Below, one piece after another: positions 1,730 through 53,568 of a stretch of DNA of 60,067 nt. Within the stretch, counting starts at the first letter, position 1. Every line of letters begins with the position of its first letter. Source of the DNA: a virus (lineage: Duplodnaviria > Caudoviricetes); IMG/VR virus record IMGVR_UViG_3300021964_000066, positions 1 through 60,067 of that record; one strand, written 5' to 3'. The notes under the pieces are model-generated. The model searched no databases. It was given only the letters and a program-made list of their open reading frames with translations, and was not told the DNA's origin. A program made the translations under genes and the position numbers.

Positions 1730-4700
1730 ATGGCGCAAGAAATCATTGACTTAGGTGAAGGCCCAGATAGCAACACTGGGGATTCACTTTATACAGCGTT
1801 TACAAAAACCAACAGTAACTTTACAGAGTTATACACAATTATTGGTAGCAACAGTACGACAAATTTAACTGGTAATACTATTACTGCAAATTATTTTTAC
1901 ACTACTGGCAATTTAAGAGTTGGTAATGTCAATGGTTTTGGAAATTTAAGCACTATTGGCAATATTATTGGGGCGGGATATTTTTATCCTAACGGTCAAA
2001 GTGTTTTTAGTAACATTCAAGCAGATCTTAGCAACATAGCGCAAAATGTTCTTCCTGTTACCTCGGCCACATACACATTAGGCAACGTTAACAAACAATG
2101 GCAGCAAGCTTACATTTCTTCTAATATAACATTAAATGGTGCTAATATTGCAATTTCTGATGGCGTACTAACAGTAAACGGTGCAGAAGTAAGTGGCAAT
2201 TATAGTAATAGTAATGTAGCATCCTATTTGCCTACTTATTCAGGCAATTTAGATAGTTTGGCTGGTAATGTAATTACTACTGCTAATGTTACTGCTGCTT
2301 ATTTTATTGGTAATGGTAGTCAACTCGAAGGACTGCCTGCTTCTTATTCAAACGCAAACGTAGCCAGTTATTTGCCAACGTATAGTGGTAACCTTGACAG
2401 TGTCGACGGTATAACTGCAAACAGTATTAGTGCAACAGAATTTATTGGCAACATTATCCCAAGCGCCAACGTTACTTACAATTTGGGAAGTTCAGATTTT
2501 AGATTTAAAGATTTATTCTTAAGTGGAAGTACTATTAACTTAGATGGTGCATCAATTAGTGCCAACAATACCGCAGTGATTATTACAACTGCTGAAGGTG
2601 GTACATTTGTTATTCAAGGATCTGAAGATGCAACAACATATAGAATTCAAAATGGCACTTCTAATGTTGACATTCCTGCTAGTGACGGAAATATTTTAAT
2701 TTCAGTTAACGGTGAATCGATAGCAACTTTTTCTTCCTTAGGTTTAGAAGTTGTTGGAAACATTACACCTGGTAATGTAGATACCGCAGGCAATGTTACA
2801 GCCAGTTATTTCTTTGGTAATGGTAGCCAATTAGACGGACTTACAGAATTAAGTGTAAACTTTGCAAACACTGCGGGTACTGCCGAGTTCGTAACCAATG
2901 CTACACAGGCAAACATTACCAGTGTTGGCACATTGACCAGTCTGACATTAAGTGGTACACTAACTGGCACTACAGTAGAAGCAGCACAAATTGGTAATAG
3001 TGGTGCTACATTAACAGGTACACTAGACACTGCAGCACAGACTAATATTACTTCAGTTGGCACACTGACTGGTTTGACACTAAGTGGTGCACTAAACGGT
3101 ACTACTCTACAAGCCGCTACAATTGGAAATGTAGGTGCTTCGATTATAGGTAATGGAAGCGCATTAACAAGTTTAACTGGGGCAAATGTTACAGGGACAG
3201 TAGCAAATGCAACATACGCGGACAGCGCAGATAGTGCTACAACCGCAACAAGTGCCGACACTGCTGAATTTGTAACTAACGCTACACAGAGTAACATTAC
3301 ATCAGTTGGCACACTAACAAGTCTGACATTAAGCGGCACGCTGACTGGTACAACTGTTGAAGCGGCACAAATAGGTAACAGCGGAGCAACACTAACCGGT
3401 ACACTAGATACTGCTGCTCAGACAAACATCACATCTGTCGGTACACTAACTGGGCTAACATTATCAGGAACATTGACAGGTACTACACTTGAAGCAGCAA
3501 CTATTGGTAATGCAGGTGCAAGTATAATTGGCGATGGAAGTCAATTAACCAGTTTAACTGGAGCAAATGTCACAGGTACTGTTGCAAACGCAACATACGC
3601 AGATAGCGCAGGCAGTGCTACAACCGCAACAACGGCAGATACTGCCGAGTTTGTAACTAATGCTGCTCAAGCAAACATTACCAGTGTTGGCACGTTAACT
3701 TCGTTAACATTATCAGGTACACTGACAGGTACAACTGTTGAAGCAGCACAAATAGGTAACTCAGGAGCCACATTAACTGGCACACTAGATACTGCTGCTC
3801 AAACAAATATTACCTCAGTTGGTACATTAACTGGATTAACATTAAGTGGTACATTAACGGGTACAACCATTAATGCTGCCAGCATTGGTAACGCAGGATC
3901 TACACTAACTGGTACGTTACAAACCGCCGCCCAAACAAATATTACCTCAGTAGGCACATTAACTGGATTAACACTGAGTGGTACACTAACAGGTACTACT
4001 GTCGAAGCAGCACAAATAGGTAATAGCGGTGCTACACTAACAGGTACGCTCGATACCGCGGCACAAACTAATATCACATCTGTTGGTACACTAACTGGAT
4101 TGACACTAAGTGGTGCATTAAACGGTACTTCACTTAATGCTGCAACCATTGGAAATAGCGGGTCGTTACTGACAGGCACCCTTACTACAGCAAGTCAACC
4201 AAACGTTACTTCACTAAGTGACAGCGTTACAATCGGTGAAATCACAATTGGTAGCAATGCTATTACTAGCACACATCATACTATTACATTAGAACCGGCT
4301 GATGCAGGTAGTACAGGTAATGTTGTTATTGAAGGTAATTTAAGAGTTACAGGAAATGTAACTTACATTGACAGTGAAACAATCACTACCAATGACAAAG
4401 ACATAATGATTGCTAACAATACCAGCAACATTGCAGATTTGAATGGTGCTGGTATACTTGTTGGTAATATTAGTGGTGCAGGAATTGTTACTTGGACATA
4501 CAGCACAACACAAGATGCTTGGATTAGTAATGTTGGAATTGCACCAGCAGCTAATGCTACGTTGGATTTTGGTGGTACAAGTAATTATTGGAACAATGCA
4601 TACGCAGCAAATGTTATTTCTGAGAGCCTAACAGGTACATTACAAACTGCTGCTCAAACTAACATCACATCTGTTGGTACACTAACTGGACTTACACTAA

Positions 4701-7700
4701 GTGGTAACTTGGATGGCACAAACATAAATGCAGCCAGTATTGGTAACACTGGCGCAACCATTACAGGTACACTACAAACTGCTGCTCAGACCAATATTAC
4801 AAGTTTAGGGACATTAACTGGTTTAACATTAAGTGGTACACTAACTGGTACCACAGTCGAAGCTTCTACCATTGGTAACACAGGTGCAACACTAACTGGC
4901 ACATTGAGTACCGCAGCACAAACAAACATTACATCAGTTGGTACACTGACTGGTTTAACACTAAGTGGTACACTAACAGGTACAACTGTTGAAGCAGCAC
5001 AAATAGGTAACTCAGGAGCAACACTAACTGGTACATTAGACACCGCTGCTCAAACAAACATAACAAGCGTAGGTACACTAACTGGTTTAACATTAAGTGG
5101 TACACTAAACGGAACAACTATACAAGCCGCCATAATCGGTAACTCAGGTGCCAGCATTATTGGAGATGGCAGTCAGTTAACCAGTTTGACGGGTGCAAAC
5201 GTAACTGGCACTGTAGCTAATGCTACATATGCAGATAATGCAGGCAGTGCTACGACAGCGGTAAGTGCTGACACTGCTGAGTTTGTAACTAACGCCACAC
5301 AGGCAAATATTACCAGCGTAGGCACATTAACCGGCTTAACTTTAAGTGGTAACTTAGATGGCACTAACATCAATGCGGCCAGCATTGGTAACTCAGGTGC
5401 AAGTATTACAGGTACAATACAAACAGCAGCACAAACAAATATTACTTCGGTTGGAACACTAACTGGACTTACACTGTCAGGAACACTAACTGGCACAACA
5501 GTAGAAGCAGCACAAATTGGTAATAGTGGTGCAACCCTAACTGGTACATTAGATACTGCTGCACAAACTAATATTACAAGTGTTGGTACATTAACCGGAC
5601 TAACTTTATCGGGTACACTAACCGGCACAACTGTTAACGCTGCTCAAATCGGAAATATTGATGCTGCAATAACAGCTGCAACAGTAAGTGCTGCCACAAT
5701 TGGTAATACAGGAACTACACTCACAGGTACATTAAGCACTGCGGCTCAGACAAACATTACATCAGTTGGTACTTTGGTAAGTTTAGGAGTTACTGGCAAC
5801 GTAGACGCTGGAAATCTTATTACAACTGGAACGGTAGAAGCAACTGGCAATATTTCTACTGACAACTACTTGTTAGGAAATGGTAGGTTTATTCAAGGAA
5901 TTACCGTCGCAGCTGGTAGTGCAATTGAAAATGGTACCAGTAATGTAGTTGTTGCTGCAAGTGGTAACATTACTGCTGCCGTTGCTGGCGTGACAGATGT
6001 TGTAACAATTGCTACCGACGGTGTATACACCGGCAATGTGTTTGTTGACAACACCATTACTGCAGCAACAGTAAATGCAGCTCAGATTGGTAATAGCGGT
6101 GCTACCTTAACAGGAACACTTGACACTGCTGCACAGACTAATATCACCTCAGTAGGTACATTAACTGGCTTAACTTTATCAGGTGCATTAAATGGTACTA
6201 CACTACAGGCAGCAACTATTGGTAATTCTGGCGCATCATTTATTGGTAATGGTAGCCAATTAACAAGCCTAACCGGTGCAAATGTTACAGGTACTGTAGC
6301 AAATTCTACATATGCAGATAATGCAGGTAGTGCTACAACAGCAATAACAGCAGATACCGCTGAGTTTGTAACTAACTCCACACAGAGCAACATTACTGCA
6401 GTTGGTACATTAACCAGCTTAACTCTGTCAGGTACATTAACAGGTACAACTATAGAAGCAGCACAGATTGGTAACAGCGGTGCTACACTGACAGGTACGC
6501 TGGATACCGCTGCCCAAACTAACATTACATCTGTTGGTACACTAACCGGTTTAACTCTTTCAGGAACTCTAAACGGAACAACCGTACAAGCAGCCACAAT
6601 TGGTAATGCTGGTGCAACTTTAATTGGTAGTACATTAGATACTACTGCAAACGCCACAGTAAATGGATTAACAGTTAATACCAGTACTACTATTTCTACA
6701 ACTTTAGATGTAACTGGTAACATTACAGGTGGAAACTTATCGGGAACTTTAATAGCAGGCACTTTGAGCACTGCTGCACAACCTAACATCACTTCACTTG
6801 GAATATTAACCGGACTTACACTGTCAGGCACGTTAACTGGTACTACTATAAACGCTGCCACAATTGGTAATACAGATGCTGCTATTGTTGGTGCTACAGT
6901 AAGTGCTGCAACTATTGGTAACACTGGTGCTGCTATCGTAGGTGCAACCGTTAGTGCAGCCACAATTGGTAACGCTGCTGCCGCGCTCGTCGGTGCAACT
7001 GTTAATACCAGTGCTAATGCAACAGTAAATGGATTAACAGTAAACAATAGTGCCACAATTGGTACTACATTAGGTGTTGCTGGTGTTACAACTATTACAG
7101 ATACTACGGATAGCACTGACACAGTAACAGGTGCACTGGTAGTATCGGGTGGCGTTGGCATTGCCAAACAACTGCGTGTAGGCAATAACGCTGTAATTAG
7201 CGGTAGTGCAACTATTGTAGGGGATTTGAACGTTAGTGGTAACGTAAACTATAGCGGTTCCAATAACTTGGTTATTAGCGACAACGTAATCGAATTACAC
7301 GTTGCCAACGTAGCCAACGTTGCTGAACCCTGGACATTTGATGATGGTAAAGACATTGGTCTGCGTTTCCACTACTATGAAGGTGCAGATAAGAGTGCTG
7401 CGTTTGTTTTCAGTCACGATGAACGTAATTTTGAATTTTACGATGATGGTGCACTGGGTGCAAACGTATTTACAGGCAACAGTTATGGCGGTTTAAAAGC
7501 AGGACAAGCTGTATTTGTTAACACTACACCGACAACAGGAAATGCAACTGGTGCACTGCAAGTTTATGGCGGCGCAAGTGTCAGCGGTAACCTATATGTG
7601 GTTGGCCAGTTTACTGTAGAAAATACTGTAACTTTTTCTAATACAATTTCAGGTACTACATTTGAAGCAGCACAAATTGGTAATACAGGTACAATATTAA

Positions 7701-10700
7701 CTGGAACAATAAGCACTGCTAGCCAGCCTAATATTACTAGCTTAGGAACACTAACTGGACTTACATTATCAGGTACACTAACAGGTACTACTCTTGAAGC
7801 AGCACAGATTGGAAATGCAGGAGCAACTATCACTGGTGCTACAGTTGAAGCTGCTACAATTGGTAATTCAGGTACAACACTGACAGGTACACTAAGCACT
7901 GCAAGTCAACCTAATGTTACTTCACTGGGTACACTGACAGGACTTACATTGTCAGGTACATTGACAGGAACAACTGTCGAAGCCAGTCAAATAGGTAATG
8001 TTGGTACTACCTTTACAGGTGCCAGTGTAAGTGCAGCCACAATTGGTAACTCAGGTGCAACCTTAACAGGAACTTTAAGTACTGCTAGTCAGCCAAATGT
8101 AACAAGTCTCGGAACACTAACCGGATTAACCCTAAGTGGCACACTAACAGGAACTACGTTAGAAGCAGCGCAGATTGGTAATAGCGGTGCTACATTAACA
8201 GGTACACTAGACACCGCAGCACAAACAAACATAACATCGGTTGGCACACTAACCGGATTGACATTAAGCGGTACACTAACAGGTACAACTGTTGAAGCAG
8301 CACAAATAGGTAACTCAGGAGCAACACTAACTGGTACACTTGACACTGCTGCTCAAACTAATATTACAAGTCTTGGTACACTGACTGGGCTAACACTAAG
8401 TGGCACATTAACGGGTACTACAGTTGAAGCCGCACAGATTGGTAATTCAGGAGCCACGTTAACTGGTACGCTTGACACTGCTTCACAAACAAATATTACT
8501 TCAGTAGGCACATTAACTGGGCTAACACTGAGTGGTACACTAACAGGCACAACGGTAGAAGCAGCACAGATTGGTAACAGCGGAGCAACTTTAACAGGTA
8601 CTTTAGATACTGCAGCTCAACCAAACATAACCAGTGTTGGAACTCTTGACAGTTTGACTGTTACAGGTAATGTTGCTGGCGGCAACTTAACAACTGCAGG
8701 AGACGTAACAACCGTTACAGTAACAGCATCGGGTAACATATCAGGTGCTAACCTTACTACTGCAGGCATAGTTGATGCAACTGGAAATGTTAGTTCTGGC
8801 AACTACTTACTTGGAAATGGTAGATTTATTCAAGGTATCACTGTTGAAGCAGGATCCTCTATTGCAAGTGGAACAAGCAACGTTGTTGTTGCCGAAGATG
8901 GCAATGTAACATTTGGAATCGGTGGAACCAACGATGTTGCTACTGTTACAACTACAGGAATTGAAACAGGAACATTATCACTTACTGGTACACTAACAGG
9001 CACAACAGTAGAAGCAGCACAGATAGGTAATAGTGGAGCAACTTTAACAGGCACGTTAGATACTGCAGCTCAGACAAATATCACATCAGTCGGTACATTA
9101 ACTGGACTAACACTAAGTGGTACACTAACAGGTACAACTGTAAATGCGGCTACTATTGGTAACTCAGGCGCTACAATTATTGGTAATGGAAGTCAGTTAA
9201 CCAGTTTAACAGGAGCAAACGTTACAGGTACAGTAGCCAATGCAACTTATGCTGATAGTGCAGGTAGCGCAGGAACTGCAACAAGCGCAGACACTGCTGA
9301 ATTTGTAACTAACGCTACACAGAGTAACATTACATCAGTTGGCACATTAACCAGTTTAACCGTTACAGGTAATGTCAGTGCAGGTAATGTTAGTGCTACT
9401 GGACTAGCAGGTACATTAAGTACTGCTGCACAAACTAATATTACTTCACTAGGCACATTAACTGGGTTGACACTTAGCGGCACATTGACAGGTACCACAA
9501 TAAACGCAGCCGCAATCGGCAATTCGGGTGCAACTCTAACTGGTACACTGCAGACAGCAGCACAAACAAATATAACTAGTGTTGGTACACTAACTGGATT
9601 AACACTTAGCGGCACATTGACAGGTACCACAATAAACGCAGCCGCAATCGGCAATTCGGGTGCAACTCTAACTGGTACACTGCAGACAGCAGCACAAACA
9701 AATATTACTTCGCTGGGTACACTCACTGGATTGACTCTGTCAGGCACGTTAAATGGAACTACGGTACAAGCAGCGACTATCGGAAATGCAGGCGCTGCGT
9801 TTATTGGTAATGGAAGTCAGTTAACCAGCTTAACAGGTGCAAACGTAACAGGCACAGTGGCTAATGCCACTTATGCTGATAGTGCAGGTAGTGCAGCCAG
9901 TGCTACTTCTGCTGACTCGGCAACTCTTGCTGAATATGTAACACAATCTGCACAAGCAAACATTACTAGTGTAGGTTCCAGTCTTACTACAGCCGAAATT
10001 ACAATTGGTAGTAATGCAATTACAAGTACTCACCATACAATTACTATTGAGCCTGCAGATGCTGGAAGTACAGGCAACGTGGTAATTGAAGGTAATCTGC
10101 GTGTTACTGGTAATGTAACTTATATAGACAGCGAAACAATTACAACCAATGACAAAGACATCATGGTTGCTAACAACCAAACTACAAGTTTGGGTATTGA
10201 TGGCGCTGGTATAATTGCAGGTAATGTCAGCAACGTAGGCATTGCTACATTCACTTACGACCACAGTACAACTAGTTGGCAACCCAACGTAGGAATCACA
10301 CCTGCTGCAAATGCTTCATTAGACCTTGGTGGTACCAGCAACTACTGGAATAATGGATATTTTGCTGCTATTACTGCACCGAGCATTACTGGTACACTAC
10401 AGACTGCTGCTCAAACTAATATTACCTCAGTAGGCACATTAACTGGATTGACCTTAAGTGGTACACTAACTGGTACAACCATAAATGCTGCTGCAATTGG
10501 TAACTCGGGTGCAACACTTACAGGTACGATACAGACTGCTGCTCAAACTAATATTACCTCAGTAGGCACATTAACTGGATTAACACTGAGTGGTACACTA
10601 ACTGGTACAACTATAAATGCTGCTGCAATTGGTAACTCAGGTGCAACACTTACAGGTACAATACAAACAGCAGCACAAACAAATATTACCTCAGTTGGAA

Positions 10701-11482
10701 CATTAACTGGATTGACACTAAGTGGTACACTAACAGGTACAACTGTTGAAGCAGCACAAATAGGAAACTCAGGAGCCACATTAACCGGTACACTAGATAC
10801 TGCCGCCCAAACAAATATTACCTCAGTTGGAACATTAACTGGACTAACATTGAGCGGTGCCCTACTTGGAACTACAGTAGGTACAAGCGGTAACGCCACA
10901 GTCAACGGGTTAACAGTAAATACCAGTGCCACAGTAGGCACAACATTGGGAGTTACAGGTAACGCCACAGTAGGCGGCATACTGACAGACAACTACTACT
11001 ATGCAAACGGTAGTCCATTTAGTCCTGGCGGCGGCGGCGGAACCACAACAGTTAGCAATACTGCACCAAGTTCACCAAGTCAAGGCGATATTTGGATTGA
11101 TAGTGACAGTGCTATACAGTACATTTACTTCAGTGACGGGGATAGCAGCCAGTGGGCTGAAATGCAAGCAGAATTATCATTCGGACAGAGCAGTTACTGG
11201 TTAGAAAAGACAGGCAACTACACAGCAGTTAGTGGCGATTGGTTAATTGTAAATACAGCAAGCAGCGCAATTACAATTACTTTACCTGCTAGTCCATCAT
11301 TGGGTGATACAGTCAAGATTGTAGACGGCTCTGGTAATGCTGCAACAAATAATATCACTGTTGACAGAAACACTAATAATATAAACGGCACTGCTGCAAA
11401 TCTAACTATTGACATCGATAGAGCATCTGTTGAAGTTGTTTACTATGATACAACCAATGGATGGATTCTAATAGGAACATAA
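1730..11482 (+). CDS. Giant repeat-built tail fibre/adhesin-like virion protein (3250 aa)
   Basis: N-terminal IDLG..PD..TGDSLYTAF.K.N.NF.ELY motif typical of T4-like baseplate/fibre proteins. Dozens of 44-aa T/G/A/S/N repeats. C-terminal AP.SP..GDIWIDS and ITLPASPSLGDTV modules. Confidence 0.8.
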   Translation: MAQEIIDLGEGPDSNTGDSLYTAFTKTNSNFTELYTIIGSNSTTNLTGNTITANYFYTTGNLRVGNVNGFGNLSTIGNIIGAGYFYPNGQSVFSNIQADLSNIAQNVLPVTSATYTLGNVNKQWQQAYISSNITLNGANIAISDGVLTVNGAEVSGNYSNSNVASYLPTYSGNLDSLAGNVITTANVTAAYFIGNGSQLEGLPASYSNANVASYLPTYSGNLDSVDGITANSISATEFIGNIIPSANVTYNLGSSDFRFKDLFLSGSTINLDGASISANNTAVIITTAEGGTFVIQGSEDATTYRIQNGTSNVDIPASDGNILISVNGESIATFSSLGLEVVGNITPGNVDTAGNVTASYFFGNGSQLDGLTELSVNFANTAGTAEFVTNATQANITSVGTLTSLTLSGTLTGTTVEAAQIGNSGATLTGTLDTAAQTNITSVGTLTGLTLSGALNGTTLQAATIGNVGASIIGNGSALTSLTGANVTGTVANATYADSADSATTATSADTAEFVTNATQSNITSVGTLTSLTLSGTLTGTTVEAAQIGNSGATLTGTLDTAAQTNITSVGTLTGLTLSGTLTGTTLEAATIGNAGASIIGDGSQLTSLTGANVTGTVANATYADSAGSATTATTADTAEFVTNAAQANITSVGTLTSLTLSGTLTGTTVEAAQIGNSGATLTGTLDTAAQTNITSVGTLTGLTLSGTLTGTTINAASIGNAGSTLTGTLQTAAQTNITSVGTLTGLTLSGTLTGTTVEAAQIGNSGATLTGTLDTAAQTNITSVGTLTGLTLSGALNGTSLNAATIGNSGSLLTGTLTTASQPNVTSLSDSVTIGEITIGSNAITSTHHTITLEPADAGSTGNVVIEGNLRVTGNVTYIDSETITTNDKDIMIANNTSNIADLNGAGILVGNISGAGIVTWTYSTTQDAWISNVGIAPAANATLDFGGTSNYWNNAYAANVISESLTGTLQTAAQTNITSVGTLTGLTLSGNLDGTNINAASIGNTGATITGTLQTAAQTNITSLGTLTGLTLSGTLTGTTVEASTIGNTGATLTGTLSTAAQTNITSVGTLTGLTLSGTLTGTTVEAAQIGNSGATLTGTLDTAAQTNITSVGTLTGLTLSGTLNGTTIQAAIIGNSGASIIGDGSQLTSLTGANVTGTVANATYADNAGSATTAVSADTAEFVTNATQANITSVGTLTGLTLSGNLDGTNINAASIGNSGASITGTIQTAAQTNITSVGTLTGLTLSGTLTGTTVEAAQIGNSGATLTGTLDTAAQTNITSVGTLTGLTLSGTLTGTTVNAAQIGNIDAAITAATVSAATIGNTGTTLTGTLSTAAQTNITSVGTLVSLGVTGNVDAGNLITTGTVEATGNISTDNYLLGNGRFIQGITVAAGSAIENGTSNVVVAASGNITAAVAGVTDVVTIATDGVYTGNVFVDNTITAATVNAAQIGNSGATLTGTLDTAAQTNITSVGTLTGLTLSGALNGTTLQAATIGNSGASFIGNGSQLTSLTGANVTGTVANSTYADNAGSATTAITADTAEFVTNSTQSNITAVGTLTSLTLSGTLTGTTIEAAQIGNSGATLTGTLDTAAQTNITSVGTLTGLTLSGTLNGTTVQAATIGNAGATLIGSTLDTTANATVNGLTVNTSTTISTTLDVTGNITGGNLSGTLIAGTLSTAAQPNITSLGILTGLTLSGTLTGTTINAATIGNTDAAIVGATVSAATIGNTGAAIVGATVSAATIGNAAAALVGATVNTSANATVNGLTVNNSATIGTTLGVAGVTTITDTTDSTDTVTGALVVSGGVGIAKQLRVGNNAVISGSATIVGDLNVSGNVNYSGSNNLVISDNVIELHVANVANVAEPWTFDDGKDIGLRFHYYEGADKSAAFVFSHDERNFEFYDDGALGANVFTGNSYGGLKAGQAVFVNTTPTTGNATGALQVYGGASVSGNLYVVGQFTVENTVTFSNTISGTTFEAAQIGNTGTILTGTISTASQPNITSLGTLTGLTLSGTLTGTTLEAAQIGNAGATITGATVEAATIGNSGTTLTGTLSTASQPNVTSLGTLTGLTLSGTLTGTTVEASQIGNVGTTFTGASVSAATIGNSGATLTGTLSTASQPNVTSLGTLTGLTLSGTLTGTTLEAAQIGNSGATLTGTLDTAAQTNITSVGTLTGLTLSGTLTGTTVEAAQIGNSGATLTGTLDTAAQTNITSLGTLTGLTLSGTLTGTTVEAAQIGNSGATLTGTLDTASQTNITSVGTLTGLTLSGTLTGTTVEAAQIGNSGATLTGTLDTAAQPNITSVGTLDSLTVTGNVAGGNLTTAGDVTTVTVTASGNISGANLTTAGIVDATGNVSSGNYLLGNGRFIQGITVEAGSSIASGTSNVVVAEDGNVTFGIGGTNDVATVTTTGIETGTLSLTGTLTGTTVEAAQIGNSGATLTGTLDTAAQTNITSVGTLTGLTLSGTLTGTTVNAATIGNSGATIIGNGSQLTSLTGANVTGTVANATYADSAGSAGTATSADTAEFVTNATQSNITSVGTLTSLTVTGNVSAGNVSATGLAGTLSTAAQTNITSLGTLTGLTLSGTLTGTTINAAAIGNSGATLTGTLQTAAQTNITSVGTLTGLTLSGTLTGTTINAAAIGNSGATLTGTLQTAAQTNITSLGTLTGLTLSGTLNGTTVQAATIGNAGAAFIGNGSQLTSLTGANVTGTVANATYADSAGSAASATSADSATLAEYVTQSAQANITSVGSSLTTAEITIGSNAITSTHHTITIEPADAGSTGNVVIEGNLRVTGNVTYIDSETITTNDKDIMVANNQTTSLGIDGAGIIAGNVSNVGIATFTYDHSTTSWQPNVGITPAANASLDLGGTSNYWNNGYFAAITAPSITGTLQTAAQTNITSVGTLTGLTLSGTLTGTTINAAAIGNSGATLTGTIQTAAQTNITSVGTLTGLTLSGTLTGTTINAAAIGNSGATLTGTIQTAAQTNITSVGTLTGLTLSGTLTGTTVEAAQIGNSGATLTGTLDTAAQTNITSVGTLTGLTLSGALLGTTVGTSGNATVNGLTVNTSATVGTTLGVTGNATVGGILTDNYYYANGSPFSPGGGGGTTTVSNTAPSSPSQGDIWIDSDSAIQYIYFSDGDSSQWAEMQAELSFGQSSYWLEKTGNYTAVSGDWLIVNTASSAITITLPASPSLGDTVKIVDGSGNAATNNITVDRNTNNINGTAANLTIDIDRASVEVVYYDTTNGWILIGT
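2860..10860 (+). repeat. Coding 132-bp (44-aa) degenerate repeat, AAQTNITSVGTLTGLTLSGTLTGTTVEAAQIGNSGATLTGTLDT
   Basis: Visible throughout the translation. A nucleotide-identical tandem stretch of about 100 nt starts at 9471 and 9603 (132-nt period). Boundaries approximate. Confidence 0.9.
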
Positions 11483-46743: not shown

Positions 46744-47028
46744 ATGTGGAGATCAGTTAGAACGCACCCTACAGGTCTAAAATTAACAGAAGATGAAATT
46801 GATAGAATAAGGAACACTTATAACGAACTTATTGCTAACGGTACAATTGCCGAGCCCCCACAAGAGATGGAGGAAACCGGATACTTTGATGAGCCTGGTT
46901 ATGTTGCAATAAGGTATTTTAACACCGAAGAAGAGCATACAATTTGGCGTAATGCTTCATCAACTGCAAATATCGGTATAGAATGGCCAACTGATATCAT
47001 TCATACATTTGAAGAAGTATCTGAATAA
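46744..47028 (+). CDS. Hypothetical acidic protein (94 aa)
   Basis: SD AAGGA, clean ORF. Confidence 0.55.
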   Translation: MWRSVRTHPTGLKLTEDEIDRIRNTYNELIANGTIAEPPQEMEETGYFDEPGYVAIRYFNTEEEHTIWRNASSTANIGIEWPTDIIHTFEEVSE

Positions 47029-47080
47029 GACTACTCATTTCTTAGTTTACCGATCTGGTCGTGTTATCCGCAAATAACTG

Positions 47081-47109
47081 TTGACAAAAAATTCCCGTTA
47101 CTATATAAT
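47081..47109 (+). promoter_or_regulatory. Consensus sigma70 promoter heading the tRNA array
   Basis: TTGACA-N17-TATAAT, 10 nt before the first tRNA. Confidence 0.9.
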
Positions 47110-47118
47110 AACTCTATT

Positions 47119-47194
47119 GCGCCTGTAGCTCAATGGTTAGAGCAGTAGACTCATAATCTATTGGTTGGGGATTCGAGTTCCTCCGGGCGCACCA
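47119..47194 (+). tRNA. tRNA with CAT anticodon (elongator Met or Ile2)
   Basis: Cloverleaf GCGCCTG/CGGGCGC, loop CT-CAT-AA, encoded CCA. Confidence 0.85.
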
Positions 47195-47203
47195 GGTTAG
47201 TAT

Positions 47204-47291
47204 GCCCGGATGGTGAAATAGGTAGACACAACAGACTTAAAATCTGTCGCCCCAAACAGGCGTGCCGGTTCGAGTCCGGCTCCGGGCACCA
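47204..47291 (+). tRNA. tRNA-Leu(TAA)
   Basis: GCCCGGA/TCCGGGC, loop CT-TAA-AA, long variable arm, CCA. Confidence 0.92.
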
Positions 47292-47416
47292 CGAGATTAT
47301 TATGAGTTTAGGTTCATTATACCTTTTGATTCAGTTCTTTAATAAACAAGAAATTTGTTTTTGGGACATTCACCAAGATTGATTTTGGATAAGTACAGTA
47401 CTTCAAGGAGAACTGT

Positions 47417-47563
47417 ATGGCAGCAAAATCGAAATTAGGTGAAAAACCCCAAGTCAAATTAAAAATTGAAAAGCGTACCAGTCAGGGCGGCAAAGTCAAA
47501 CGCTCGAGCATGAACAAAGGTCAGAAGCGTGGTTTTAAAGCATACCGTGGACAGGGACGCTAA
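47417..47563 (+). CDS. 48-aa basic microprotein ending YRGQGR
   Basis: My translation MAAKSKLGEKPQVKLKIEKRTSQGGKVKRSSMNKGQKRGFKAYRGQGR; SD AAGGAG. Confidence 0.75.
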   Translation: MAAKSKLGEKPQVKLKIEKRTSQGGKVKRSSMNKGQKRGFKAYRGQGR

Positions 47564-47572
47564 GTAAAAAGT

Positions 47573-47649
47573 TCCCTGGTAGCTCAGTCGGTAGTAGCAA
47601 CGGACTGTTAATCCGTGTGTCGTTGGTTCGATCCCAACCCAGGGAGCCA
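47573..47649 (+). tRNA. tRNA-Asn(GTT)
   Basis: TCCCTGG/CCAGGGA, loop CT-GTT-AA, GCCA end. Confidence 0.92.
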
Positions 47650-47655
47650 TTTTTG

Positions 47656-47684
47656 TTGACTTATAATAGAAACGCATATATAAT
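47656..47684 (+). promoter_or_regulatory. Sigma70 promoter
   Basis: TTGACT-N17-TATAAT. Confidence 0.8.
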
Positions 47685-47693
47685 AATACTTTA

Positions 47694-47769
47694 GCCGGTT
47701 TAGCTCATTTGGTAGAGCAACGCACTTGTAATGCGTAGGTGGTCAGTTCGAATCCGACAACCGGCACCA
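47694..47769 (+). tRNA. tRNA-Thr(TGT)
   Basis: GCCGGTT/AACCGGC, loop CT-TGT-AA, CCA. Confidence 0.92.
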
Positions 47770-47866
47770 TATTAAAGCATATCTAGTCGTATGTTGAGCC
47801 TAATAGGTCTACAACGGCATACGATGAACTTGCTATGTTGTAGTGGCATGGTGTGCTTTAATATGG
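47770..47866 (+). ncRNA. Candidate three-way-junction RNA with possible pseudoknot
   Basis: Closing stem TATTAAAGCATATC/GGTGTGCTTTAATA, two inner stems and a complementary CTACAAC/GTTGTAG pair. Confidence 0.5.
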
Positions 47867-47871
47867 TAAAT

Positions 47872-47956
47872 GCCCCTTTGGCGTAATTGATAGACGCACT
47901 GGATTTAGGTTCCAGCGCCGCGAGGCGTGAGAGTTCGATTCCGGCAGACGGCACCA
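47872..47956 (+). pseudogene. Chimeric/defective tRNA-Leu(TAG)
   Basis: 5' part resembles tRNA-Leu at 48861, but the 3' end (CCGGCAGACGGCACCA) cannot properly form the T stem or acceptor stem. Confidence 0.75.
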
Positions 47957-48010
47957 AAATTTTTTTACCGATTAAATAAATATTTTAATATTTTTATCAA
48001 AGGTAAAATT

Positions 48011-48826
48011 TTGTCATTTCGAGTACATAAAAACGTTGTAACAGATGAGTTTGTTCAAGATACACTGTTATTATTTGATAAAAACATAGGCGCAAGGCAT
48101 CCACTTCCTGAGGAAATACAATCTCCTTATTTCGGACTTGTTGATTTATCTGTTTTACCCAATAAGTATAAAGAACAACTTTTTTCAATTCTAGACAAGA
48201 TTTTAGATGAACCGTATGAACTTGAAAAAATTTACTTGTACGATAAAGAAAAGCACAATTTCTCATTGCATGTTGATACAGGAGAGGATGAAATTCCTCA
48301 AAGACTTTATAAAAATGTCTTAATTCCTATAAAAGGAATCGGAGCTTCTACTGTTATTTTTGAAAACAAATGGTATCATAAAAGAGCACTTTTTAAAAAA
48401 AATAGTGCGAAAAATGAGAAAATTACTGTATCTCTAAACAAAATTTCAGGAGAAAATATTATAGATGATGTTAGAAAATTAACACCATTACCGCCACATT
48501 GTCAACAGCCCTACTGGAAATATGGTTTGACAAAGGAACAAGTTTATGAACTTTTGGCATTCGCCGACATACAAGAGCAAAGATGGATCGTAGGAGATTA
48601 CTCAGAAATAGAAGGTTATGATCCTCGCTTAGAAATTAATAATGAAATTTATGAAAAATACCTTAGTTCAATGACAAAAGATGATTTTAATGGTCTTACC
48701 GTCGATTCCATTTATGATTGGAATATAGGTGATGTGGCAACTTGGGATAGAAATCAATTGCACTGTGGTGCTGGCGATAATGTCAATAAGAAAAGTCTTA
48801 TAATTTTTACAAAAAAATTAAGTTGA
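48011..48826 (+). CDS. 2OG-Fe(II) oxygenase/cupin-like protein
   Basis: LHVDTG...LIP and W..GD...WDR.QLHC; TTG start re-called after AAAGGT; AT-rich. Confidence 0.55.
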   Translation: MSFRVHKNVVTDEFVQDTLLLFDKNIGARHPLPEEIQSPYFGLVDLSVLPNKYKEQLFSILDKILDEPYELEKIYLYDKEKHNFSLHVDTGEDEIPQRLYKNVLIPIKGIGASTVIFENKWYHKRALFKKNSAKNEKITVSLNKISGENIIDDVRKLTPLPPHCQQPYWKYGLTKEQVYELLAFADIQEQRWIVGDYSEIEGYDPRLEINNEIYEKYLSSMTKDDFNGLTVDSIYDWNIGDVATWDRNQLHCGAGDNVNKKSLIIFTKKLS

Positions 48827-48860
48827 CTCGATATTAAAAATTAAATACCTAGTATAAAGT

Positions 48861-48945
48861 GCCCCTTTGGCGTAATTGGTAGCCGCGCTGGATTTAGGTT
48901 CCAGTACCGAGAGGTGTGAGGGTTCGAGTCCCTTGGGGGGCACCA
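48861..48945 (+). tRNA. tRNA-Leu(TAG)
   Basis: GCCCCTT/GGGGGGC, loop TT-TAG-GT, variable arm, CCA. Confidence 0.9.
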
Positions 48946-49291: not shown

Positions 49292-49588
49292 ATGAAAAGT
49301 CTAATTGCTATTCTAAGTTTAACACTAAGTGGTACAGCACTAGCCGATCAGGCACTAGCACAGAAAAATATGTGTTTGGCCTGCCACGCTGTTGACACCA
49401 AGTTGGTAGGACCCTCTTACAAGGATGTTGCCGCAAAATATCGAGACCAAAAAGACAGTGTTTCATATCTTGTCAACAAAATCAAAAACGGCGGCTCGGG
49501 TGTTTGGGGTGTGATTCCCATGCCGGCACAGCCACAGCTCAGTGACAAAGACGCTGAAACTTTAGCTAAGTGGATTTTGCAAAAGTAA
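49292..49588 (+). CDS. Class I cytochrome c (c551/c552-like) with signal peptide
   Basis: Sec signal ending ALA-D, CLACH heme motif, K.VGP.Y..VA.KY and G.WG..PMP with axial Met. Confidence 0.92.
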   Translation: MKSLIAILSLTLSGTALADQALAQKNMCLACHAVDTKLVGPSYKDVAAKYRDQKDSVSYLVNKIKNGGSGVWGVIPMPAQPQLSDKDAETLAKWILQK

Positions 49589-49632: not shown

Positions 49633-49646
49633 ACATTTAAGTTGAC

Positions 49647-49701
49647 GCACATTAGAGATAAGACGGTACTGGTTCGAAACGGGACTCCTCGTCTAATGTG
49701 C
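49647..49701 (+). ncRNA. Candidate small structured RNA/leader
   Basis: 10-bp stem GCACATTAGA/TCTAATGTGC enclosing 35 nt that include GGTTCGAAAC. Confidence 0.4.
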
Positions 49702-49706
49702 TTCTT

Positions 49707-49786: not shown

Positions 49787-49864
49787 AGTACGGTGGCAGA
49801 GTGGCCCAATGCACGGGACTGCAAATCCCGAAAATCGTCGGTTCAAATCCGACCCGTACTTCCA
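49787..49864 (+). tRNA. tRNA-Cys(GCA)
   Basis: AGTACGG/CCGTACT, loop CT-GCA-AA, U73-CCA. Confidence 0.9.
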
Positions 49865-50056
49865 GAACGTTCCGTGTAGCAACGGATACTCCGACCCGGA
49901 GGATGAGAAGTGGTGTAGCAACCACGGGTGGTTCCAGTCCAACCAAACTGGCGCTGGCAATGCGACAACGGTCCCTGTCGGGAAGCGGGTGGAAGGTATC
50001 TGTGAAGCGATGCATAGTGGAGATACTATAATTACCGCCGGGGGACGCAGAGCACT
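49865..50056 (+). ncRNA. Candidate ~190-nt multi-stem non-coding RNA between tRNA-Cys and tRNA-Tyr
   Basis: GC-rich with no credible ORF; at least seven complementary stems identified by eye. Confidence 0.65.
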
Positions 50057-50058
50057 TT

Positions 50059-50143
50059 GGACAGGTGGGTGAGTGGTTAAAACCAGCAGACTGTAAATCT
50101 GCCGCCCCTGGCTACGTTAGTTCGAATCTAACCCTGTCCACCA
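50059..50143 (+). tRNA. tRNA-Tyr(GTA)
   Basis: GGACAGG/CCTGTCC, loop CT-GTA-AA, variable arm, CCA. Confidence 0.92.
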
Positions 50144-50148
50144 TATTT

Positions 50149-50223
50149 GGTCTGTTAGTTAAACGGTTATAATAATGGCCTGTCACGCCGTAGTCAGGGG
50201 TTCGACTCCCCTACAGACCGCCA
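50149..50223 (+). tRNA. tRNA-Asp(GTC)
   Basis: GGTCTGT/ACAGACC, loop CT-GTC-AC, GCCA end. Confidence 0.92.
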
Positions 50224-51490: not shown

Positions 51491-52594
51491 ATGAGAATTA
51501 TCGAAGAAGTAAAGTTGGATTTCAAAGATGTACTCTTTGTGCCAAAACGCAGTACCTTGACTAGCAGGCGTGAAGTTGATTTAACCAGGCATTTTCGATT
51601 TAAACACAGTGGCTATGAATATACGGGTATACCTATCATGGCTTCAAACATGGATGGTGTTGGCACATTTAAAATGGCCCAGGCGTTAACAGAACACCAA
51701 TTGTTTACCTGTATAGTAAAAACTAAAGGTTTTGCCGACTGGGTTGAAAATTGGAAAAACTTAACAGAGAATACTGTGGCAGTAAGCACGGGTATTACAG
51801 AAGCAGACAGTCAACGATTAGACACGATTTTAAAACACTGTCCTGACATACAGTTTATCTGTATCGATGTTGCTAATGGCTATCACGAACACTTTGGTGA
51901 TTTTGTTGAACAGGTCAGACTTAAATATCCCGCAAAAACTATCATTGCTGGTAACGTAGTTACTGCAGACATGACGCAAGAACTTATCATGAGAGGAGCA
52001 GACATTGTCAAAGTTGGAATCGGCCCAGGATCGGTATGCACGACTAGGTTTCAAACTGGGGTTGGCTACCCGCAACTTAGTGCGATTATTGAGTGCAGTG
52101 ATGCGGCTCATGGGCTCAATGCCCATATTATTGCTGATGGCGGTTGCACTAGCCCAGGCGATGTGGCTAAGGCATTTGGCGCCGGCGCCGACTTTGTCAT
52201 GCTTGGGGGTATGTTAGCAGGACATACCGAAGGCGGCGGCGAAGTTATTACAAAATATTATAATCCACAAAATGAATATTTCCTTGAAAACAAGGAACGT
52301 GGGGATTATGCTCCGGTAATAAAAATGCAAAAGACCAGTCAGTTTTACGGTATGAGTTCAGACACTGCTATGAACAAACACAGTGGCGGTGTTGCTAACT
52401 ATCGTAGCAGTGAAGGTAAAACAGTAACCATGCCCTACAAAGGTGATGTTGAGCATACAGTGTTAGACATATTGGGCGGCTTACGTAGCACCTGCACTTA
52501 CGTTGGTGCTATAAACTTAAAAAATCTCAGTAAGTGTACTACTTTTGTGAGAGTTACGCAACAGACTAACGACATTTATGGAAAACCACGATGA
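51491..52594 (+). CDS. guaC: GMP reductase
   Basis: [50 protein letters not shown] and YR.SEGK. Confidence 0.93.
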
Positions 52595-53568
52595 GTTTCA
52601 AAGAAGAAATTTTAAAATACAGTAGGCAAGATCAAATTGCCCCGCTTAGTGATTGGTTCGACAATGCACTAAGAGAACTAATTGATTTTGATGTTTATCC
52701 CTACGAAGATAAACTCAGTGAAATTGGTAAAATTCTAATTAAAAATCTAGTAGAATACCGACAAAAGTATAACATTGAAAATGTTGTAATAGGTATGAGT
52801 GGTGGCGTAGACAGCGCACTTACCGCAGCCTTGTTTAAACAGGCAGGTTGGCAAGTACACGGTTATACACTACCAATTCATCAAAAGACTGAAGAAACTC
52901 TCCGAGGTCGGCGTGCTTGTGAAGCATTAGGTATTAATCATACGGAAATTGATTTGACTGCTACTTACGATGGCATGATAGCATGGTTCATGCAACACGA
53001 CGATACGCTAGTAGGCCAAGGCACTGAACCTTTACGCAAAGGTAATTTACGTGTGAGACTGCGTATGATGACCTTGTATAACCAAGCTAGTAAACACCGA
53101 GGTCTAGTAGCCAGCACAGACAACTACAGTGAACTGGCTGCAGGATTTTGGACACTGCACGGTGATGTAGGTGACGTCAGTCCTATTCAAAGTCTTAACA
53201 AAAGTTGGGAAGTACCTAAACTGGCAGAACTGATGGCTGTACCTCAAGAAACAGTGTTTGCTGTGCCTACAGATGGATTAGGTATTAGCAATAGTGACGA
53301 AGACCAATTCGGGTTTAGTTATTTGGAGTTTGACATTGTTCTACATCGCGTTGGACAGACCACTATTACTTCTTCCAACCGGCAGGAAATTTTAGAATCA
53401 TTAGCAGTGCCCGACACCGATTTAGAAAAAGTAAATCGTATCTTAGATAGAATTCAGAGCAGTACATTTAAACGAGCAAATCCTTATAACTTACTGCACC
53501 CCGCACAACCTACTAGATTCCAACAACTGGAAACCATAGACACAGCATTGTGGAATACAGTAAAATAA
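52591..53568 (+). CDS. nadE: NH3-dependent NAD+ synthetase
   Basis: [11 protein letters not shown]...RLRM..LY, TDN.SE...[13 protein letters not shown] and DEDQFG.SY. Confidence 0.88.

Follow-up and report, generated by a model that had tools for sequence, protein, structure and literature searches.

The window, the whole stretch of DNA analysed here, comprises 60,067 nucleotides (nt) of the IMG/VR virus record IMGVR_UViG_3300021964_000066 (Caudoviricetes). It is a 60-kb fragment estimated to be 14% complete, and its large terminase is nearest to those of the PA5oct-group jumbo phages (57.5% identity). ARAGORN and Rfam place 15 tRNA genes in its array, all on the + strand, and the element that is our subject, a predicted RNA hairpin structure at 47770-47866, lies on that strand directly after tRNA-Thr(UGU) (47694-47769; Rfam tRNA score 67.7 bits). 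There is a sigma-70-like promoter, TTGACT-17-TATAAT, at 47656-47684 (+), about 9 nt upstream of tRNA-Thr; it matches 11 of 12 consensus positions, and a related viral contig, L002, retains this same near-consensus promoter. Judging from its sequence, this promoter would drive a transcript containing tRNA-Thr and the element, and no terminator-like site was found in 47000-48900. Five nucleotides after the element begins a degenerate tRNA-Leu(UAG)-like sequence (47872-47953, +) with acceptor-stem mismatches, scoring 25.5 bits against the Rfam tRNA cut-off of 29 and not called by ARAGORN. It is followed by a gene of 271 amino acids (48011-48826) that belongs to no known family and for which a protein-based search gave no result.

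An intact tRNA-Leu(UAG) lies at 48861, beyond the 271-amino-acid gene, and two related contigs, L120 and L122, lack the insert. The region of this gene looks like an insertion that duplicated part of tRNA-Leu. In L120 and L122 tRNA-Thr and an intact tRNA-Leu(UAG) are 102 nt apart; the element occupies all of this gap, and tRNA-Leu starts 3 nt after it; tRNA-Thr, the element and tRNA-Leu fold side by side in these contigs, with the terminal helix beginning at the discriminator base.

The original prediction described 47770-47866, from the letters of the DNA, as a compact three-way-junction RNA with helices P1, P2 and P3 and a possible 7-base pair (bp) kissing or pseudoknot contact. The strings given for the three helices and for the 7-nt complement are all found at their coordinates, and the minimum free energy fold of 47770-47866 contains P1, P2 and P3 exactly as given (-34.2 kcal/mol, z = -4.38; shuffled sequences -21.45 +/- 2.91 kcal/mol, with 0 of 200 equalling the native fold). 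The P1 core, 47770-47783 with 47850-47863 (+), agrees between string check and predicted fold and was correctly located, but its extent had been drawn too short: the CCA of tRNA-Thr (47767-47769) pairs with UGG at 47864-47866 to form the first three pairs of a 17-bp helix. The 17-nt 5' strand of P1 is CCAUAUUAAAGCAUAUC (47767-47783, +), the signature arm of the family described below; the 3' strand is GGUGUGCUUUAAUAUGG (47850-47866, +), and the discriminator A47766 can pair with U47867 just outside the helix. With these bases included (47767-47868) the fold energy falls to -41.2 kcal/mol (z = -5.76), a value that none of 200 shuffles equalled. The minus strand of the element reaches only -25.4 kcal/mol. 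The claim that many G-U pairs point to RNA rather than DNA holds, because the + strand of the window's copy contains seven G-U pairs and is free of A-C mismatches; fold energy, against both shuffles and the minus strand, likewise supports a structured + strand RNA.

Inside P1, P2 (47786-47825, +) is an 11-bp stem pairing 47786-96 with 47815-25; it is lineage-specific, and its apical part is weak in the predicted fold (AG/CU, CCU/AGG, loop AAU). P3 (47831-47848, +) is a 6-bp stem pairing 47831-47836 with 47843-47848 around the 6-nt loop GUUGUA, and it is located at the site equivalent to a T arm yet lacks the T-loop consensus. As read from the fold, the layout of the element resembles a tRNA without its D arm: the inner stem of 7 bp is followed by UA, a long arm, a linker of 5 nt and a short arm that adjoins the 3' strand. 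Neither ARAGORN nor Rfam RF00005 called a tRNA cloverleaf on 47770-47866. That the RNA matches no catalogued family was borne out: Rfam 15 was negative at gathering thresholds, and on 47767-47868 no model, those of self-cleaving ribozymes and riboswitch aptamers included, matched at its gathering score or up to E = 10.

What had been overlooked is the decisive context: the first bases of the structure are the CCA of tRNA-Thr, within the tRNA array of a phage, and P1 is the signature of a large family. The arms of the element fit CCAUAUWRAARCA ... UGYUUYWAUAUGG without mismatch at 47767-47779 and 47854-47866. Three further sites in L120 carry the same arms around quite different interiors, and two unrelated contigs carry them between other tRNA pairs. 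A first gapped pattern was too loose (117 stretches, of which only those in L100 and L104 were relevant). The family scan used the two arms with a free centre; it returned at least 120 stretches of viral contigs with shorter centres and at least 118 with longer ones. The family so defined numbers at least 297 instances in at least 234 viral-contig loci. Its members have a terminal helix of 17-18 bp (up to about 20 bp) and a variable cargo of 30-80 nt between the arms; the 5' strand opens with the CCA of the preceding tRNA and the 3' strand closes in UGG, abutting or overlapping the first bases of the next tRNA.

Neighbouring tRNAs allowed 289 of the 297 listed instances to be oriented. Among these matches listed, to which the counts of instances, interiors and tRNA types below also refer, 202 of 289 start exactly on the CCA of a tRNA called by ARAGORN, and in 126 of 289 the next tRNA lies at -2 to +10 nt, frequently with the final GG in common. 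The CCA is part of the tRNA itself, since 1688 of the 1719 other tRNAs in these loci likewise end in CCA. Elements with no called tRNA ahead often follow tRNA-like or hairpin-plus-CCA sequences, or a promoter. A recurrent RNA terminating in a hairpin (loop CAACA) plus CCA lies ahead of several such 'orphan' members. We consider it very probable, at about 0.9, that the element is a real + strand RNA fold and a member of a large family of CCA-anchored hairpins in the tRNA clusters of uncultivated large phages; the figure covers these two descriptive statements jointly.

The arm pattern matches only seven stretches in prokaryote genomes (one per species, 185,579 species); one of these, a 1.5-kb contig from a metagenome-assembled genome, has two copies. 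Nothing convincing was found with the arm pattern among GenBank phages, and blastn of three elements gave no matches or matches at chance level; one such match was checked and lies inside a coding region. The nearest isolates by terminase, those of the PA5oct group, share the gene order Met-Leu-Asn-Thr, but their tRNA-Thr is not followed by such a hairpin. In each of five complete genomes (160-400 kb) there are one or two canonical copies. In a search of the literature by lexical matching no description of CCA-anchored inter-tRNA hairpins was found, and the family is apparently undescribed.

Two further sites in the window's own array bear on the family. A truncated relative in the 5' leader of tRNA-Glu (49644-49703, +; -19.1 kcal/mol, z = -1.6) retains the inner arm pair CACAUU/AAUGUG, although the CCA-anchored outer arm is missing, and by reading its interior resembles one of the interior classes of the family. 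At the tRNA-Tyr/tRNA-Asp junction L120 has a 71-nt family hairpin (9817-9887), where the window has only TATTT (50143-50149); this reads like the outermost arm bases remaining after loss of the hairpin.

A motif-independent search for stems starting at a tRNA CCA was made over 1779 tRNA CCA ends in the listed loci, and its result is bimodal: the background peaks at 6-7 pairs and a separate group of 150 ends has at least 15 pairs. In 138 unique hairpins, a set whose percentages are inflated because it was selected for pairing, positions 1-17 are paired in at least 95% except at position 8, which is A-C in 66 of 138, and position 16, which is U-G in 79 of 138; pairing falls off beyond position 18. 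In 102 of the 138 the discriminator can pair with the base that follows UGG, and in 87 the helix can be extended to position 72. Compensatory counts are less affected by the selection. Across 100 unique arm pairs, double-sided changes occur at 14 of the 17 helix positions; the compensatory cells number 256, whereas 500 column shuffles gave 53 on average and never more than 70. In 108 of 142 unique elements the tRNA-sense strand folds more stably than the antisense strand.

Contrasting arms are also found, for example CCAAAC..GUUUGG and CCAUUUGUUUUGCUGACG..CGUCAGCAAAACAAAUGG. The kept trait is complementarity together with the CCA:UGG anchor, and not a protein-binding sequence; quite different arms sometimes occur in one contig (e.g. 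L248). Two ideas about the arm sequence itself were rejected. The arms do not track the codon of the upstream tRNA, as a T-box-like specifier would (Gln, for instance, stands before AAAAA arms), and a partial by-eye likeness to a boxA antitermination signal in the window's 3' arm is lacking in the commonest arm variant. A separate class of about 123-126 nt occurs mainly after tRNA-Glu(UUC) (L100 11340-11462 (-), L187, L220, L231, L242, L245, L248, L253, L214 and L202); its interior is conserved and its 18-20-bp CCA-anchored helix is fully different in sequence between contigs. This difference makes the class the strongest case of covariation in the family.

The hairpins follow certain tRNAs. 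They are found after 56 of 82 tRNA-Lys(UUU), 26 of 79 tRNA-Gln(UUG), 23 of 93 tRNA-Glu(UUC), 12 of 67 tRNA-Leu(UAG) and 5 of 61 tRNA-Thr(UGU), with none after 134 tRNA-Met and none after Asp, Cys, Ser, Phe, His, Trp or Val; these counts come from related loci ascertained by the motif and are not independent, but the contrast between types is still large.

How, then, might such a hairpin work? We favour, at roughly even odds, the reading that the element is a co-transcribed spacer RNA of the CCA-anchored family in which P1 sequesters the ends of the neighbouring tRNAs and which is removed by nucleases. The specific route, a double-strand RNase acting on P1 together with RNase P, is proposed more tentatively. 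The element would be made as part of the tRNA precursor, where P1 would sequester the 3' end of the tRNA before it and the 5' leader of the tRNA after it; only once P1 had been cleaved or opened could RNase P and 3' exonucleases complete both tRNAs. A double-strand-specific endonuclease, most plausibly host RNase III, could cut P1, a helix of nearly two turns; at 17-18 bp, extendable by 1-2 pairs, the family helix is slightly under 22 bp and often has an A-C mismatch. What is left would be a stable hairpin RNA, whose cargo might or might not serve a function itself. A report on a designed switch describes how sequestering the 5' leader of a pre-tRNA regulates its cleavage by RNase P (PMC7897497), which fits the idea that P1 must first be opened or cut.

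Several observations weigh against this reading. None of 15 phage records, of which 7 are at least 90% complete, encodes an RNase III domain, so that the enzyme would have to come from the host. A helix on both tRNA ends could just as well hinder maturation and act as a brake. Nor do the hairpins serve as general tRNA punctuation, because there are only one or two canonical copies per complete genome and none after Met and seven other tRNA types. The element is 92-98% identical between contigs, where an adjoining gene of 338 amino acids is 78-81% identical at the DNA level, but this is not above the identity of the neighbouring tRNAs and of some other spacers. Interiors are barely above shuffles in structure (mean z = -0.43; 47 of 142 above zero; z = -2.1 for that of the window). 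Contigs from RNA runs (X1, X2, X3 and X23) cover only the tRNA-like parts 47572-47770 and 47879-47938, come from other sequences and are uninformative on the element. Finally, the loci were gathered by presence of the motif and many of the sequences are related, so that rates are biased and counts are not independent, and the selection of the 138 hairpins for pairing counts on the same side.

An alternative is that the cargo is what matters, in that the P2/P3 junction, perhaps with the 7-bp loop contact, is an aptamer, ribozyme or regulatory RNA and P1 is merely its closing stem. The fold of the element is strong, and its orthologues bear on the question directly. With an exact 40-mer search and a covariance model derived from two copies, the element was recovered downstream of tRNA-Thr in five more viral contigs (L002, L120, L121, L122 and L123, the last copy being cut by the contig end), and a metagenome scan found six further near-identical copies, some of them probably the same records as viral contigs. 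The P2/P3 interior is therefore seen in 11 near-identical instances in all, some probably duplicate records. Among five distinct orthologous sequences 175 of 176 cells are paired, the exception lying in P2. Five pairs vary, each on one side only, and all five remain paired through G-U, on the + strand only; P2 has three such G-U-compatible one-sided changes, and in P3 one pair changes from A-U to G-U. No double-sided change was found in P2 or P3 among these five sequences, and for this reason the set has no statistical power. No further member of this interior class was found by alignment score among the at least 297 family instances, and its covariance model matched only 2 of 38 related records. 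The P2/P3 interior thus appears to be confined to one narrow lineage.

The kissing pair itself, CUACAAC at 47809-15 with GUUGUAG at 47837-43 (+), is present as a complement, but the contact is unsupported and shows no covariation: six of its seven pairs are invariant and the seventh is broken in one of the five sequences without compensation. The complement also clashes with three P2 pairs and the first P3 pair of the predicted fold, and is partly explained by a 7-nt direct repeat, TATGTTG, at 47790-47796 and 47834-47840, seen by direct reading. Compensatory changes are present in P1 across the family, at the 14 positions given above; among the five orthologous sequences none was seen in P2, P3 or the kissing helix. 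The likeness to aptamers and small ribozymes was not supported either, as only P1 is conserved in hundreds of relatives and the interior is lineage-bound and lacks compensatory change.

The 250 unique elements of the family fall into 165 interior clusters, 114 of them singletons, so that they share no catalytic or ligand-binding core. An antisense guide was tried and rejected: the longest exact complement of the 66-nt interior elsewhere in the window is 10 nt, where shuffles usually reach 11. There are two points on the other side. Some of the other interior clusters, by reading, show compensatory changes in their hairpins. In addition, the structured RNAs GOLLD and ROOL, of unknown function, often lie near phage tRNA islands according to the available passages of 10.1101/2024.12.08.627333, and GOLLD occurs in a contig, L350, that also bears the family. 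With the interior negative in Rfam and known only from near-identical copies, we regard a functional cargo as the chief role of the element as unlikely.

The element could instead be a decayed tRNA gene, a pseudo-tRNA with a chance-paired leader and trailer that persists as a harmless folded spacer without function. Its tRNA-like layout, the degenerate tRNA-Leu that adjoins it and the weak average structure of the interiors are consistent with such an origin. A T-arm-like hairpin was found in 18 of 250 members; the corresponding figures are 2 for the antisense strand and 0.85 for shuffles. Ten of the 18 adjoin the 3' arm (-3 to +4 nt) and 17 occur in longer elements. These hairpins hint that part of the family derives from tRNA genes. 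However, the T arm is present in only 7% of members, and P3 does not have the T-loop consensus. A neutral remnant would not hold the length of its helix constant through 256 compensatory cells in 100 arm variants, nor would it show a strong bias in the upstream tRNA. Functionless decay is, like a functional cargo, an improbable account of the element.

A further possibility, more speculative still, takes the sequestering helix of the favoured reading as an end in itself: a cis-acting clamp that would hold phage tRNAs as inactive 'pro-tRNAs', with the CCA paired, until a double-strand RNase releases them. If true, the clamp would set the timing of replacement-tRNA supply in the infected cell or safeguard that supply, and the cargos could be decoys or small regulators. 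The tRNAs held in this way would above all be Lys(UUU); Gln(UUG) and Glu(UUC) would come next, with Thr(UGU) in the present case, and some of these tRNAs are targets of bacterial defence nucleases.

Least probable is an element acting at the DNA level, in which the inverted repeats are recombination or transposition hairpins that shuffle tRNA cassettes in the manner of miniature inverted-repeat transposable elements (MITEs) or integron attachment sites. The conserved terminal inverted repeats with a variable centre, the 71-nt element of L120 opposite TATTT at the tRNA-Tyr/tRNA-Asp junction, a tRNA array that is mosaic between relatives and two positions that consistently differ between left and right arms would suit such a site; but the arms contain the tRNA's own CCA and its complement UGG, which a DNA site does not need, orientation relative to tRNA transcription could be assigned in nearly all listed instances, the arm asymmetry (5' ..CACAUU, 3' AGUGUG..) by reading runs the same way throughout them, the sense strand folds better, and complementarity is kept between quite different arms in one contig. 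Moreover, one or two canonical copies per complete genome (n = 5), no sets of identical copies and the diversity of the interiors are not what a MITE would give, and no target-site duplication was seen by reading, although no search was aimed at neighbouring recombinase genes. Taken together, the data are best described by the co-transcribed, CCA-anchored spacer.

The array has further features. A gene of 98 amino acids at 49292-49588 (+) encodes a cytochrome c-like protein with a signal-peptide-like start and a CLACH haem motif and matches Pfam Cytochrom_C (E = 4.8e-09). Such a gene is unusual in the tRNA island of a phage; L002 has it as well, with an Ala-Glu spacer of the same 430 nt. Between tRNA-Leu(UAA) and tRNA-Asn there is a very basic open reading frame of 48 amino acids (47417-47563, +) ending in KAYRGQGR, with a weak match to phrog_17967 (function unknown) and DNA 84-97% identical in relatives. 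The Cys-Tyr spacer (49862-49960, +) contains repeated small hairpins with the loop GUAGCA (CCGUGUAGCAACGG and GGUGUAGCAACC) and is 93% conserved in L120 (9556-9625). These GUAGCA-loop hairpins and the CAACA-hairpin RNA that precedes some orphan members may be further small RNAs of the tRNA island. Downstream of the array, at 51491-53568 (+), lie a gene of the GMP reductase/IMPDH family and an NAD synthase-type gene, the latter also matching, more weakly, the HUP domain of a tRNA 2-thiouridylase. A single open reading frame of 3250 amino acids occupies 1730-11482 (+) of the window.

Phage tRNA arrays are now seen as counter-measures to host defences that cleave tRNAs, and to our knowledge the processing of long phage tRNA precursors has hardly been studied outside T4. 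A covarying helix that pairs the CCA, with its preference for Lys(UUU), Gln and Glu, points to a particular step in the production or control of these tRNAs that can be put to the test. The P1 arms also provide a simple search signature for small RNAs in the tRNA islands of uncultivated large phages, and the conserved stem with its freely variable centre could be a natural scaffold for small-RNA expression.

The closest counterparts in position are the species 1 and 2 RNAs of T4 (rnaC and rnaD), which, like the element, are small non-tRNA RNAs encoded immediately behind a tRNA, on the strand of the tRNAs, in a phage cluster. They are annotated as small stable RNAs, and we take their function to be unknown. 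Unlike the element, and as judged from their folds and a side-by-side reading, they have no terminal helix built on CCA, no arm motif and no sequence relationship to it; rnaC carries a T-arm-like hairpin and the window's element does not. GOLLD and ROOL run to hundreds of nucleotides and have conserved, ornate cores and Rfam models, in contrast with the family elements, which are 63-130 nt long, conserve only the closing helix and match no Rfam model. The GOLLD match in L350 (10286-10556, +; 106 bits, E = 5e-27) is truncated by the end of the locus and has a tRNA embedded in it, and the family hairpin of that contig lies at 6802-6901.

The processing stems of rRNA operons and the RNase III sites of phage T7 offer a possible parallel in mechanism. 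In both, a helix of about two turns flanks RNA in a polycistronic precursor, and cleavage separates the neighbours before final trimming. The likeness would lie in the precursor helix of about two turns; for the hairpins described here, cleavage is a proposal. We know of no CCA-anchored helix abutting the next tRNA in either of these systems. The tRNA-microRNA units of murine gammaherpesvirus 68 and the tRNA-small nucleolar RNA genes of plants also place a hairpin RNA directly 3' of a tRNA-like unit and free it with tRNA-end enzymes; these systems are eukaryotic and use RNase Z on tRNAs that do not encode CCA, whereas here the CCA is encoded and base-paired. YrlA (RF02553) has a long end-to-end stem around a partly tRNA-like body, and the likeness extends to those family members that carry a T-arm-like hairpin. 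RF02553 did not match the element; its sole hit, at 47598-47752 over two tRNAs, scored 19.3 bits against a cut-off of 69.

A catalogue of structured RNAs from IMG/VR contains 8495 unnamed intergenic candidates, some of them tRNA-like or palindromic (PMC10690425). The available main-text passages of that report describe no CCA-anchored inter-tRNA hairpin, and the catalogue may already list individual interior classes without this interpretation. The element is of a known kind, that of non-tRNA RNAs in phage tRNA clusters, and the CCA-anchored helix is a feature of its own.

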